In this document: positions 39,839-44,204 of the stretch, one piece after another
Layout: each line of letters opens with the position of its first letter
Numbering within the stretch: the first letter of the stretch is position 1
Sequence record: PZ452584.1
DNA: 64,000 nt
Source: a phage
Strand: one strand, 5' to 3'
Made by a program: the position numbers and the translations under genes
Notes under the pieces: model-generated
Told to the model about the DNA's origin: nothing
The model's database searches: none
Seen by the model: the letters and a program-made list of their open reading frames with translations, nothing else

Positions 39839-40693
39839 TCACAATGAAGAAAATTCTTTAACTAAAGCCTGTAATGAAGCCTCTATTGGATATCCATTCT
39901 TAACTAACATTTTCCTAAACATCACATGTTTAGGACGATTATATGATATCCACAATTCATACAATTTATCTTTATTATCCCAATGATAGCCTTTTCGTCG
40001 AGATGCTATATGAGCTTTTCTAATCTCCGGATTTTTCCAACTAGCAGCTACTGAATTTGATATAGCTATTTTATATTCAGGTTTTGATAAAGCAGCACGA
40101 ACAGCCTTTTGGTGTTTAATTTTATTTTCTTCGTTATTAAACCATTCCCTTGAAGCCATTGAAATTTTTTGTTTTGTTTTAAAATTATTTAATCTTTCTT
40201 TGTTATCTTTCCTATTTTTTGCTACTGAAAAATATTTTAATGCCCTTTCTCTAGCAGCATTTCTATTTTGCGGATTTGAATAATATTGTTGAAGCCTTTT
40301 TGATATTGTGTCACTTACATCTTGTTTTATAAAACTATATTCAGCAGCTATTAAATCAACTTCGGCTAAAGATAAATTTTTATATGTTTTTCCTGACATC
40401 ATTCTATTTAAAGCATTTAGCATTTTTCCATTTTTACCTTTTGCTAATAAGAAATGTGCTTTAAAATGATTAAAATGACTTAAATTAACTAAATTCCATG
40501 TAGATTTTAAATATTCAGGAAATATTGATTTAGGAAGCACGTGATGTGCTTCCGTTTTACCTGGAGTTTTAACAGTTGAATTCATAGAAATAAAATTAAT
40601 GTAAGACTTGGCGTCTTCTTCACTCAACGCTAATTTTTCAACTAATTCCTTTATTAAAAATTCATCATTAATGTCAAGTTTAAAATTCTTCAC
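39839..40693 (-). CDS. putative HNH homing endonuclease (Mob-like) 284 aa
   Basis: HH...N...H pattern (EAHHVLPKSIFPEY...NLVNLSHFNHFKAH) plus repeated basic DNA-binding modules; paralog of the ORF at 48376-49215; inserted between 46 and 47. Confidence 0.7.
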   Translation of the reverse strand: MKNFKLDINDEFLIKELVEKLALSEEDAKSYINFISMNSTVKTPGKTEAHHVLPKSIFPEYLKSTWNLVNLSHFNHFKAHFLLAKGKNGKMLNALNRMMSGKTYKNLSLAEVDLIAAEYSFIKQDVSDTISKRLQQYYSNPQNRNAARERALKYFSVAKNRKDNKERLNNFKTKQKISMASREWFNNEENKIKHQKAVRAALSKPEYKIAISNSVAASWKNPEIRKAHIASRRKGYHWDNKDKLYELWISYNRPKHVMFRKMLVKNGYPIEASLQALVKEFSSL

Positions 40694-40905: not shown

Positions 40906-41140
40906 CCTTAATACAAGATACAGCCATATCTCGTAATGATTTAGGTGTGTCATTATCTAAAATGTTGAAGTTAAAAGATACAGCCCAGTCAGTGCAGACC
41001 GTAACCTTTTTAATACAATTATCTTCAACCTCTAGCGGTTCAAACCAATATTCAATAATTTCTTTATGCCCAATATCATCTTTTACTTCGCATTCAAAAT
41101 GCTGACTCATCATAACATTTTTAAATTCATCAAAAGTCAT
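40877..41140 (-). CDS. hypothetical protein 87 aa
   Basis: ORF track; ATG overlaps gene 47 stop (ATGA). Confidence 0.45.
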   Translation of the reverse strand: MTFDEFKNVMMSQHFECEVKDDIGHKEIIEYWFEPLEVEDNCIKKVTVCTDWAVSFNFNILDNDTPKSLRDMAVSCIKDAYCEVFDI

Positions 41141-42156
41141 TGTGTTGCCTCTACATATAACTGATTTGCATATTGAATAAGTGCTTCACGGTCAGAATCA
41201 GTGATGTCTGGAATTGCATTAATGTATTCTTCCATCAACGTCTGAAGAGATTGAACTTCAACTTCTTCACTGTCATCTGACTCGACAGAGTTATCAATCT
41301 TTGACACAACTCGTAATGAATGCACAACTTTTTCTAGTTCAGATTCGAACTTCGTCAGATTTTTGTCTACTTCAGTTACTATAACACGTACTGATAGATT
41401 TGTAAAATCTTTATAGTCAATTTTTCCTTTAAATGGATAATGAATTCTACGATGCCAGGTAGTATTGTTTGGAATAAATTCCATTCGTTCTGTTTCTGTA
41501 TCAAACATCCAGAACCCGCGAGGGTCATTCTCGTCACCTGCAGTTAGTGTCCATGGTGTCCCAATATATCTGACGTTAGCAGCCTCAGAGATAGTATGGA
41601 AGTGACCAGACCACACCTCTTTATAAGTCTTAAGGAAATCAGGTTCAAGACCATGAGATTTCATTCCTTTATAAAAATAAAATCCATTCAGTTCCCAGTG
41701 ACCAACACAAAAAGAAGCAGAAGAAGTTTTTATGTGCTCGAGAATTTCACCAGTATTTTCTTCACACATCCAAGGAATTAAATCAATTAAACATCCGTCA
41801 AAATCTACTGTAGTAGGCTTATCATATACTTTAACATTAGGATATTTAGCCAAAAGCTCAGTAGAGGCATTTGGATGCATTACATTTTTGTAGTGGAGAT
41901 CGTGATTTCCTACAATAGTATGTAATGTGATTCCAGCGTCATCAAGCATTTGAACTATTTCACGGGCAAACTCCATAGTTTTATGTGTGATTGCTTTTCG
42001 CACATCAAAAATATCACCATATTGAATCCATACAGTAATTCCATTTTTCTTAGAATATTCTATCGCTTGCTTAATTCCATCAATTTGAATACCGCGAATC
42101 CACTCATCATCAGCTTTAACGCCTAAATGCCAATCACCCGAGTTTAGTATTTTCAT
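41137..42156 (-). CDS. 47: recombination exonuclease gp47 (Mre11/SbcD-like phosphoesterase)
   Basis: 339 aa, same length as T4 gp47; metallophosphatase motifs DWHLG, GDIFD, GNHD. Confidence 0.95.
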   Translation of the reverse strand: MKILNSGDWHLGVKADDEWIRGIQIDGIKQAIEYSKKNGITVWIQYGDIFDVRKAITHKTMEFAREIVQMLDDAGITLHTIVGNHDLHYKNVMHPNASTELLAKYPNVKVYDKPTTVDFDGCLIDLIPWMCEENTGEILEHIKTSSASFCVGHWELNGFYFYKGMKSHGLEPDFLKTYKEVWSGHFHTISEAANVRYIGTPWTLTAGDENDPRGFWMFDTETERMEFIPNNTTWHRRIHYPFKGKIDYKDFTNLSVRVIVTEVDKNLTKFESELEKVVHSLRVVSKIDNSVESDDSEEVEVQSLQTLMEEYINAIPDITDSDREALIQYANQLYVEATQ

Positions 42157-42766
42157 GGTGTCTTTTCCATCCTAATTTAGCTGCTTTTGAAACTAGTTCT
42201 TTAATTTTTCCTTTTGTCCATTCAGGACCAGGAGGTTCATGACATAACATTTGCTTAACTCCGTTATTATACCATTTTTTACCTTTATTATGTGATGAAG
42301 CTTTAAATTTATTTGACCTTCCTTTTACATAACCTTCTGGAATATAAGGCAAAAAGGCAGATTTTCCTGTTAATGGATCATGTGAATGTATATTTCCTTT
42401 ACAATTATGAGAACCATATAATGGATGATTTTGTCCTTTATTATCTCTTCCAAATGAACCTTTTGGAGCAGCATATGACATATTAAAGAATAATGGATTT
42501 TTAACTGCATCATGCAATCGTTGATAATATAACTCGCATTTAATAGCTTCTTCACGCGTATCAAATTCAGCTAAAATGCATGAATCAAATAAGTGAGGAT
42601 TATCTGAAAGCTCTTTATTATAAATTTTCTTATACTTTTTAGATAAAACTGAACCATGATATCCAGCTAAATGCCTATCTAAAGACGTAGATCCAATATA
42701 AAAAGGAGGAAGTTTATCTCCACTATATATATTGTTAAATAAGTTATATATTTTTTCATATATCAA
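42134..42766 (-). CDS. GIY-YIG-like homing endonuclease (Seg-like), possibly degenerate
   Basis: N-terminal NIY-x8-YIG with downstream R and E, then N.P.YG linker motif typical of free-standing phage endonucleases; no in-frame ATG before the catalytic motif (TTG start listed). Confidence 0.5.
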   Translation of the reverse strand: MIYEKIYNLFNNIYSGDKLPPFYIGSTSLDRHLAGYHGSVLSKKYKKIYNKELSDNPHLFDSCILAEFDTREEAIKCELYYQRLHDAVKNPLFFNMSYAAPKGSFGRDNKGQNHPLYGSHNCKGNIHSHDPLTGKSAFLPYIPEGYVKGRSNKFKASSHNKGKKWYNNGVKQMLCHEPPGPEWTKGKIKELVSKAAKLGWKRHHENTKLG

Positions 42767-42896
42767 GAACCGTCATTGAAATGCAAAATAAAATTATTGA
42801 AATAAACCCATCTGGTGTGCTAAAGAACCCAATCCAACATGCTTTAGTGAATAGATAAAATGCAAGAAAAAGTATCACATATCCAAGAAATATCAT
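42756..42896 (-). CDS. hydrophobic micro-ORF about 46 aa
   Basis: ATG with GGAG RBS; stop overlaps the TTG start region of the GIY-YIG-like ORF; read from text, approximate. Confidence 0.3.
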   Translation of the reverse strand: MIFLGYVILFLAFYLFTKACWIGFFSTPDGFISIILFCISMTVLDI

Positions 42897-42935
42897 TATA
42901 TCAAACTCCGTATAAAGCTAAAGGGCCGAAGCCCT

Positions 42936-44138
42936 TTATTTTGTAATAATGTCAAACTGTTCTTTAAAGCAGAAGCTTGAATCTTGATGCTGATACAAAA
43001 ATTCATAAGCTTTTTCACGTTCACGGTCATAAAGAGCTCGGTCAGATGACAGTTCTTTAATACGTTCAAATGTTGATTCCATGTCATTTTCATCAAACCA
43101 AACGATACCGCTATCATGTGAAATTAACGGAGTATTATCAACACGGAATTTTAAATTTTCGCCAGTAGATTTCCAAAATACCGGAATTGTTCCACATGCA
43201 CCAAGCTCGAGATGAGTATATTCTAAAGAACGTTGTAGATATTTTTTATCCAACTTACTCAACTGATAACCAAAACCGGATTTACTCATACGTTCAAGCA
43301 TTTCGCTATTTACATAACGGTCAAGAATTTGCGTTGGTAAATTAGGAGCAATTTTAATTTGGTCTACTTGATGAAGACGATAATACTCGTATGGAATTCC
43401 TTTTTCTTTAATAGGAATGAACGCTGGAGAACGTTCCAGACCTTCCATAATAGTACTTAGTCCTGCAGGTTTAAGATGTTTTTCGTGAAAATCAAACATC
43501 TGATAAAAACCTTTCCATGTAGTCGTACGACCAATCCAACGGTTGATATTCATGTTAATTTCAGAAACATCTTTCCAGTAGGTTGATCGAACCTTCGCAA
43601 TATCCATAGGAGGCTGAAAGTTGTATACGGTCGGTGCTTCTTCAATGTCATCAAACAGAGAAACTGTTTCAGGATACCATTCTTTCATCAGAACTTTATT
43701 AAAATCGCCATTATCAGAATGACTAAAAATAACATCAGCTCGACGAACAGTTTCTTCTAATCCCAAATTTCGACGCAAAGAAAGAGAAGAATGGTCATGC
43801 TGATAAACTACAACACGAACCGAAGGTTTAATGTTATCAATAATTTTTTTATAGTTATTAATAGTGTCTTCTTCAACTGAAGTAGCAGGAACTGAATTGA
43901 TAATTAGAATATCACAATCATTTACCAGCTTAAGTGTTTTATCGTATTCTTTTGCCAATAAAACCGGAATTGAAAATGATTTATAATCATGTGCACAGTT
44001 ACGAGTAAATGATTTATCTTTAGCATAAACCAAAGTTACTTCATGACCATTTTTAATAAACCAATCACGTTGCTCAAGAGAAAATTTAGTTACACCACAA
44101 CCTTCAAGACCTCGAGCCATAAAAATACATACTTTCAT
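42936..44138 (-). CDS. agt: alpha-glucosyltransferase
   Basis: 400 aa, same length as T4 alpha-gt; N-terminus recognised. Confidence 0.9.
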   Translation of the reverse strand: MKVCIFMARGLEGCGVTKFSLEQRDWFIKNGHEVTLVYAKDKSFTRNCAHDYKSFSIPVLLAKEYDKTLKLVNDCDILIINSVPATSVEEDTINNYKKIIDNIKPSVRVVVYQHDHSSLSLRRNLGLEETVRRADVIFSHSDNGDFNKVLMKEWYPETVSLFDDIEEAPTVYNFQPPMDIAKVRSTYWKDVSEINMNINRWIGRTTTWKGFYQMFDFHEKHLKPAGLSTIMEGLERSPAFIPIKEKGIPYEYYRLHQVDQIKIAPNLPTQILDRYVNSEMLERMSKSGFGYQLSKLDKKYLQRSLEYTHLELGACGTIPVFWKSTGENLKFRVDNTPLISHDSGIVWFDENDMESTFERIKELSSDRALYDREREKAYEFLYQHQDSSFCFKEQFDIITK

Positions 44139-44204
44139 TTAATATCCTCTTTGTTTTGGTTTATTTTACCAAAAATTTATAAAGCAATATAGGAGCCGAA
44201 GCTC

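Follow-up and report, generated by a model that had tools for sequence, protein, structure and literature searches.

A putative SegG-like GIY-YIG homing endonuclease gene at the 47.1/47 junction of a T4-like phage carries a private two-base insertion

We consider it very probable that the open reading frame (ORF) separating genes 47.1 and 47 in the T4-like phage analysed here derives from a SegG-like, free-standing GIY-YIG homing endonuclease gene inserted at the junction of these two genes, and that the copy found in the window (the whole stretch of 64,000 nucleotides analysed, sequence record PZ452584.1) is a very recent loss-of-function allele of this selfish gene or, less likely, the result of a two-base sequencing or assembly error. 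In a preliminary description, the ORF had attracted attention by its lack of an ATG start. The alignment with related phages shows that this lack reflects a private lesion: the ATG is present, and one extra TA dinucleotide is all that puts it out of frame. Because there is a single 2-bp insertion, and the protein obtained after its repair is 100% identical to that of three relatives, the lesion is either very recent or an error.

The source phage of the window is T4-like and belongs to the genus Tequatrovirus, with a best match of 98% over 12 kb in the phage collection, in which no record identical to the window was found. The features of the region are listed below, with the evidence on which each of them was placed.

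42936..44138, minus strand: a-gt (DNA alpha-glucosyltransferase), the upstream neighbour; a 400-aa ORF at the position annotated as a-gt in T4 and relatives
42919..42938, minus strand: GC-rich, terminator-like hairpin directly past the a-gt stop (terminator scan)
42756..42896, minus strand: micro-ORF corresponding to T4 gene 47.1 (46 aa, predicted membrane protein; ORF list and T4 annotation)
42758-42756, minus strand: stop codon TGA of 47.1
42757..42759, minus strand: ancestral start codon ATG of the endonuclease gene, joined with the 47.1 stop in an ATGA overlap (CDS start of the relatives and alignment)
42764..42766, minus strand: TTG, incidental and unconserved, where the shifted frame has its first start-like codon
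42134..42766, minus strand: 210-aa ORF starting at this TTG (ORF list)
42679..42759, minus strand: truncated frame from the ancestral ATG, 26 codons (MKKYITYLTIYIVEINFLLFILDLRL), with its stop at 42681-42679 (translation)
42724..42731, no strand assigned: (TA)4 run with the private 2-bp insertion, where the frame is shifted (codons 11-12 of the intact gene); (TA)3 in the relatives
42134..42723, minus strand: undamaged endonuclease body 3' of the frameshift (repaired translation 100% identical to the relatives)
41137..42156, minus strand: gene 47 (SbcD/Mre11-like nuclease subunit), the downstream neighbour (ORF list and T4 annotation)

The undamaged body contains the remaining part of the GIY-YIG domain, a NUMOD3-like stretch and the C-terminal DNA-binding region, and the final 23 nt of the endonuclease 3' end overlap the relocated start of gene 47. 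The micro-ORF was assigned to phrog_6693 (E 8.8e-30). At the hairpin downstream of a-gt, phages G2540 and GiZh have a putative terminator annotated at the equivalent position.

Several elements of the preliminary description were found again at these coordinates, namely the 210-aa, TTG-initiated ORF between alpha-gt and gene 47 at 42134-42766 on the minus strand, the lack of any in-frame ATG ahead of the conserved motifs at the N-terminus, and the hydrophobic micro-ORF of 46 codons at 42756-42896 on the minus strand, with a good ribosome-binding site in the form of a GGAG Shine-Dalgarno sequence 9 nt ahead of its ATG. The stop codon of the micro-ORF had also been said to overlap the TTG, which is not the case: the TGA lies 5 nt downstream of the TTG and the two ORFs share 11 nt. 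Instead, the TGA forms an ATGA overlap with an ATG (42759-42757) that is not in frame with the TTG. No Shine-Dalgarno sequence was detected in the sequence context ahead of this ancestral ATG (42757..42759).

The same endonuclease gene is present in about 66-69 Tequatrovirus records at 97.5-99.5% nucleotide identity. The length of the junction is 119 nt in all of the 60 matches listed, compared to 121 nt in the window. Three relatives, Bas45/PaulHMueller, teqhad and G2540, were read in detail, and in their annotations the endonuclease coding sequence measures 624 nt, corresponding to a 207-aa ORF. In Bas45 and G2540, for which 47.1 is annotated as well, the endonuclease ATG and the 47.1 stop share an overlap of 4 nt. 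When the start region of the window was aligned with that of the three relatives, a sole difference emerged, the one extra TA at the (TA)n run, where the window reads AACAATATATATAGTGG and the relatives read AACAATATATAGTGG. The comparison with intact relatives for frameshifts, which had been proposed as a check, thus gave a positive result, (TA)4 versus (TA)3.

When the extra TA was deleted in silico, the window encoded a 207-aa protein starting MKKYITYLTIYSGDKLPPFYIGS and 100% identical to its counterparts in Bas45, teqhad and G2540, so that the in-frame ATG whose discovery would overturn the reading as a gene without ATG was in effect found by comparison. With the TA kept, the frame opened by the ATG is MKKYITYLTIYIVEINFLLFILDLRL and halts after 26 codons. 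In the relatives the TTG frame hits a TAG after 13 codons, and in the window the nuclease frame stays open for 13 codons back to the TTG. The extra TA shifts the frame, and the 210-aa ORF thus represents the downstream frame with its chance extension back to a TTG. No second lesion was found in the window copy beyond the 2-bp insertion, and this copy does not hold a complete catalytic domain in one frame from a start codon. The earlier suggestion of a decaying pseudogene is thus essentially right, although the decay is minimal and amounts to one 2-bp insertion.

The assignment of the protein to the GIY-YIG group draws on several comparisons. The intact protein is a near miss of Pfam PF01541 (GIY-YIG), with 21.4 bits against a cut-off of 22.6 (E 3e-4), and the TTG-initiated ORF of the window scores 20.1 bits against the same cut-off. 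In PHROGs, the best family is phrog_10820 (E 1e-94), and the large homing-endonuclease family phrog_314 is matched at E 5e-18. No NCBIfam family was found for the endonuclease, and searches of the PDB sequences, with the single protein or with a profile of 40 sequences, gave no meaningful matches. A search of 5.8 billion proteins yielded 170 homologues. Many of these carry PF07460 (NUMOD3), for which the endonuclease itself has no Pfam match, and the precomputed PF01541 was present on 1 of the 120 homologues listed. In an alignment of 40 homologues the motif GxNHPxYG is conserved; in the window it appears as GQNHPLYG, a NUMOD3-like stretch that corresponds to the N.P.YG linker noticed earlier. 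Invariant positions in this alignment are Y7, Y11, G13, P17, Y20, I21, G22, S23, Y33, G35, S39, L56, F57, A71, E75 and N92, with R68 and T9 nearly invariant, and the position after strand β2 that corresponds to Arg27 of I-TevI is occupied by R or K in this family. Candidates for the conserved catalytic residues of GIY-YIG nucleases, namely a Tyr in β1, the Tyr of Y-I-G in β2, an Arg, a Glu and an Asn, would be Y7, Y20, R68, E75 and N92.

The AlphaFold2 model of the endonuclease has a mean pLDDT of 84.5, and its confidence is very high up to residue 90; strands β1 and β2 comprise residues 4-11 and 19-25. The best Foldseek match of the model is the catalytic domain of I-TevI (probability 0.99, target TM 0.60), and the predicted structure shows the alpha/beta fold of GIY-YIG enzymes, a three-stranded sheet with flanking helices. 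The fold assignment combines this predicted structure, with its moderate scores, and the profile match to SegG. The label "HNH endonuclease" that RefSeq and PHROGs attach to this family is wrong, GIY-YIG and SegG-like being the appropriate description.

Because the Pfam match of the intact protein starts at residue 4 (profile position 2), and because its N-terminus can be set by eye in register with that of SegG, the counterpart of the GIY tyrosine is most likely Tyr7 of the intact protein, upstream of the frameshift, and not the tyrosine of "NIY". The string NIY-x8-YIG reported in the preliminary description is indeed present, but its N is a product of the frameshift, the relatives having T-I-Y at this place. 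The frame is shifted where strand β1 ends, and in the TTG frame this strand would read ...Y-N-L-F-N-N-I-Y, with the replacements Y7F, I5N, L8N and T9N. The TTG product matches the Pfam profile from position 15 onward only. If made at all, the TTG product would probably be misfolded or inactive.

The present or absent character of the insert can be seen by comparison of phages that share the flanking genes: the ORF lies between the same conserved genes in ~66-69 carriers, versus ~448 Tequatrovirus records in which 47.1 and 47 are uninterrupted. The empty junction, found among others in T2, RB59 and phages of Yersinia and Salmonella, is typically 98.6-100% identical over 71 nt in these ~448 records. 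In T4, which is without the endonuclease gene, the 47.1 stop overlaps the ATG of gene 47 as ATGA. The junction sequence is ATGAAAATTTTAAATTTAGG in the T4 type and ATGAAAATACTAAACTTGGG in the carrier type, and the insert sits precisely after gene 47's own ATGAAAA; the endonuclease gene has therefore taken over the start context of gene 47. In addition, gene 47 differs from the empty site by four synonymous changes (42139-42148) within its first 18 nt in every carrier examined. These changes would be compatible with a cleavage target in gene 47, protected in carriers, or with a co-converted donor tract.

In T4, several homing endonuclease genes overlap upstream ORFs, and coupling or scanning has been proposed to limit their translation, with terminating ribosomes rescanning a range of roughly seven codons (PMC2988022). 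Of the free-standing endonuclease genes of T4, mobA has GUG as its start codon and all others have AUG (PMC2988022). The intact endonuclease gene, of 207 codons, has neither a promoter nor a ribosome-binding site of its own, and the intact alleles are most likely translated, through the ATGA, by ribosomes that have just terminated on 47.1. Such coupling would hold the level of the nuclease low. The 47.1/47 insert, which took over the ATGA signal of gene 47, is a tidy case of a promoter-less homing endonuclease cassette that borrows the expression signals of its host. The coupling to the micro-ORF put forward earlier is thus reasonable for the intact alleles, which have the ATGA and no Shine-Dalgarno sequence, but it is unsupported at the TTG. 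In the window as sequenced, the extra TA shifts the frame at codons 11-12, the product of the ATG is a peptide of 26 residues and the nuclease body is left without a proper start. The TTG-initiated ORF is then a by-product of the lesion and not a device for the control of translation.

The alternative that deserves most weight is that the insertion is an artefact of sequencing or assembly, the true phage having (TA)3 and an intact gene with its ATG; we regard this as somewhat unlikely but as a serious contender. It is favoured by the uniqueness of the (TA)4 allele in all the collections searched. A 47-mer centred on the insertion, which cannot seed on the (TA)3 allele, had no match in the phage collection, and a 28-mer containing the insertion had none in IMG/VR, metagenome contigs or genome contigs, although the exact-pattern scan of IMG/VR was blank for (TA)4 and (TA)3 alike and is uninformative either way. 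An exact look-up of the TTG product among called proteins was also negative. The lack of any further lesion and the full identity of the repaired protein to its relatives point in the same direction, as does the nature of the other damaged copies of the gene, which were seen only in records flagged UNVERIFIED, one with an additional A in an A-run (ESh34) and one with an N-filled gap (KNP1). The copies of GiZh and EO1 are intact and were merely left unannotated.

A generally poor assembly was rejected as an explanation: when ~12 kb were compared pairwise with F26, the closest relative, no indel other than the TA insertion was found in a coding region, the two further indels being single bases in A-runs between annotated or predicted genes, which argues against an error-prone assembly. 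Moreover, replication slippage gives clean 2-bp gains in dinucleotide runs, which also counts against the artefact. Finally, homing endonuclease genes, as selfish elements, are expected to lose their function (PMC2988022).

If the insertion is real, the altered gene might still have an effect, but we consider this very unlikely. Either rare reinitiation at the TTG would give a protein with an altered N-terminus that acts as a dead DNA binder at the 47.1/47 target, or the frameshift would break a translational relay and thereby alter the amount of gp47. In the first case, the protein would have kept its C-terminal DNA-binding half and lost the tyrosine of β1, and its binding would be site-specific at 47.1/47. 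In the second case, the relay would pass from 47.1 through the endonuclease gene and on to gene 47 by way of starts that overlap the preceding ORF, and the dose of an essential recombination nuclease would be changed.

According to the preliminary description, the nuclease might be kept deliberately at a low level through termination-reinitiation at the TTG after the micro-ORF. We judge this highly improbable. With the 47.1 stop 5 nt downstream, the TTG falls within the rescanning range of about seven codons (PMC2988022), and the frame is open from there to the normal stop. As no more than three codons separate the TTG from the 47.1 stop, some initiation may take place there at a low level. 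However, relatives do not share this arrangement: those examined that have an intact copy begin at an ATG lying in a different frame, and the frame of their TTG closes after 13 codons. The ATGA persists in the window and would draw reinitiating ribosomes into a dead end of 26 codons, and no usable Shine-Dalgarno sequence precedes the TTG. Furthermore, the product would carry Y7F, I5N, L8N and T9N in β1, of which Y7 is invariant and T9 nearly so among the 40 homologues. As for programmed frameshifting or transcriptional slippage that would rejoin the frames at the TA run or at the A6 run (ATGAAAAAAT), it was rejected and its likelihood is practically negligible, since, although both runs are situated downstream of the ATG and ahead of the nuclease body, the intact relatives have the gene as one uninterrupted frame and need no recoding, the A6 run is upstream of the lesion and identical in the intact alleles, and the +1 or -2 shift required past the TA run would have to occur where there is no recognised slippery site or stimulatory element.

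Taken as a recently inactivated or misread copy of a homing endonuclease gene, the window ORF is an ordinary finding, a known kind of gene with a private lesion. Annotations as a putative homing endonuclease already exist for the gene in several genomes, and coupling of the ATGA type has already been discussed for the homing endonucleases of T4 (PMC2988022); for the 47.1/47 site, literature searches revealed no article describing an endonuclease. The consequence is mainly one of annotation, in that the ORF should be described as a frameshifted (pseudo)gene, or its sequence rechecked, and not as a TTG-initiated protein.

Among characterised proteins, the closest relative by profile comparison is SegG of T4 (hhalign 95%, E 3e-8, residues 13-113), a free-standing GIY-YIG endonuclease encoded between genes 32 and 59 that cleaves gene 32. 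The two proteins are similar in size (210 aa for SegG, 207 aa for the endonuclease), although they share only ~26% identity (BLASTP E 1e-5), and their N-termini can be compared as I-V-Y-W-F-T-F...K-T-P-P-Y-Y-Y-I-G-S in SegG and I-T-Y-L-T-I-Y...K-L-P-P-F-Y-I-G-S in the endonuclease. Both genes are free-standing, lack a promoter of their own and lie beside an essential gene of DNA metabolism (PMC2988022). They differ in their insertion site, 32/59 for SegG and 47.1/47 for the endonuclease; unlike SegG, the window copy is frameshifted. I-TevI (PDB 1LN0, 1MK0) differs in that it is encoded by an intron and has its own ribosome-binding site under the regulation of an RNA hairpin (PMC2988022). With I-TevI, hhalign aligned a short NUMOD3-like stretch only, at 11% probability, and the sequence similarity is too low to be detected by profiles.

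With regard to expression, the intact alleles, with their ATGA shared with 47.1, resemble the overlaps of the mobE/nrdA type. In T4 the start of mobE overlaps nrdA (UAAUGA), and those of segC, segF, mobA and mobC likewise overlap the upstream ORF, for which weak coupled translation has been proposed (PMC2988022). The starts of mobE, segC, segF and mobC are AUG and that of mobA is GUG, all of them conserved, whereas the TTG of the window is unconserved and derives from the frameshift. The lesion itself has a parallel in I-TevIII of T4, an inactivated homing endonuclease in an otherwise healthy genome, described in the T4 record as 'defective DNA endonuclease ... deletion in proximal half'. I-TevIII is an intronic HNH enzyme that has lost a large segment, whereas the window copy is a free-standing GIY-YIG gene with a 2-bp insertion. 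Homing endonuclease genes go through a cycle of invasion, degeneration and loss, in which degeneration is the expected fate (PMC2988022), and I-TevIII of T4 fits this cycle.

The carriers, i.e. the Tequatrovirus genomes with the SegG-like endonuclease gene between 47.1 and gene 47, have in common four synonymous differences from the empty site, the uninterrupted 47.1/47 junction found in T4 (ATGAAAATACTAAACTTG vs ATGAAAATTTTAAATTTA), and the empty-site sequence is otherwise near-invariant. These differences and the other features of the window considered here are as follows.

39839-40693, minus strand: free-standing gene, homing-endonuclease-like, with a GTG start and a 284-aa product; phrog_655 match
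42139-42148: the four synonymous carrier differences compared with the empty site, confined to the initial 18 nt of gene 47
42140, minus strand: T-to-C change in gene 47 codon 6, private to the window among the carriers examined
42965-42971: weaker TGCTTTA, within the 3' end of a-gt
44180-44188, minus strand: MotA-box-like sequence ATTGCTTTA, preceding the a-gt RBS (AGAGGA)
~44171 and ~46294: at each position, deletion of one base from an A-run in comparison with phage F26

The carrier differences could mark a tract of co-conversion, or else a cleavage target that is protected in carriers. The T-to-C change replaces Leu (TTG) by Ser (TCG) directly before the GDWH metal-binding motif of the gene 47 product; in the endonuclease frame, which overlaps gene 47 here, it is silent (CTT to CTC). 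Leu is found at this codon in T4 and in all eight other carriers examined.

The endonuclease family (phrog_10820 in PHROGs) is labelled 'HNH endonuclease' by PHROGs and RefSeq, including the teqhad copy (L002, 1535-2158). Contrary to this label, fold and profile evidence point to a GIY-YIG (SegG-like) family. In Shigella phage ESh34 (L005), the same gene has an additional A in an A-run, near nt 614 of the stretch that comprises 47.1 and the endonuclease gene, and this truncates the C-terminal domain; this insertion may be an error, as the record is flagged UNVERIFIED.

Downstream of ATTGCTTTA, a TAAAAT is present at about the right spacing, and the two motifs likely form a middle promoter for the a-gt/47.1/endonuclease/47 transcription unit. 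Both A-run deletions lie between annotated or predicted genes, one after the a-gt start region and the other between two small ORFs.

The 284-aa gene, located between gene 46 and 46.1, is a second free-standing homing-endonuclease-like gene in the window. Its product matched phrog_655 'homing endonuclease' (E 7.8e-45), and no confident family was obtained from Pfam or NCBIfam. The 46/46.1 interval holds no gene in T4, Bas45, teqhad and G2540; in F26 the matching place is occupied by a gene of 855 nt that bears the annotation 'homing endonuclease'.
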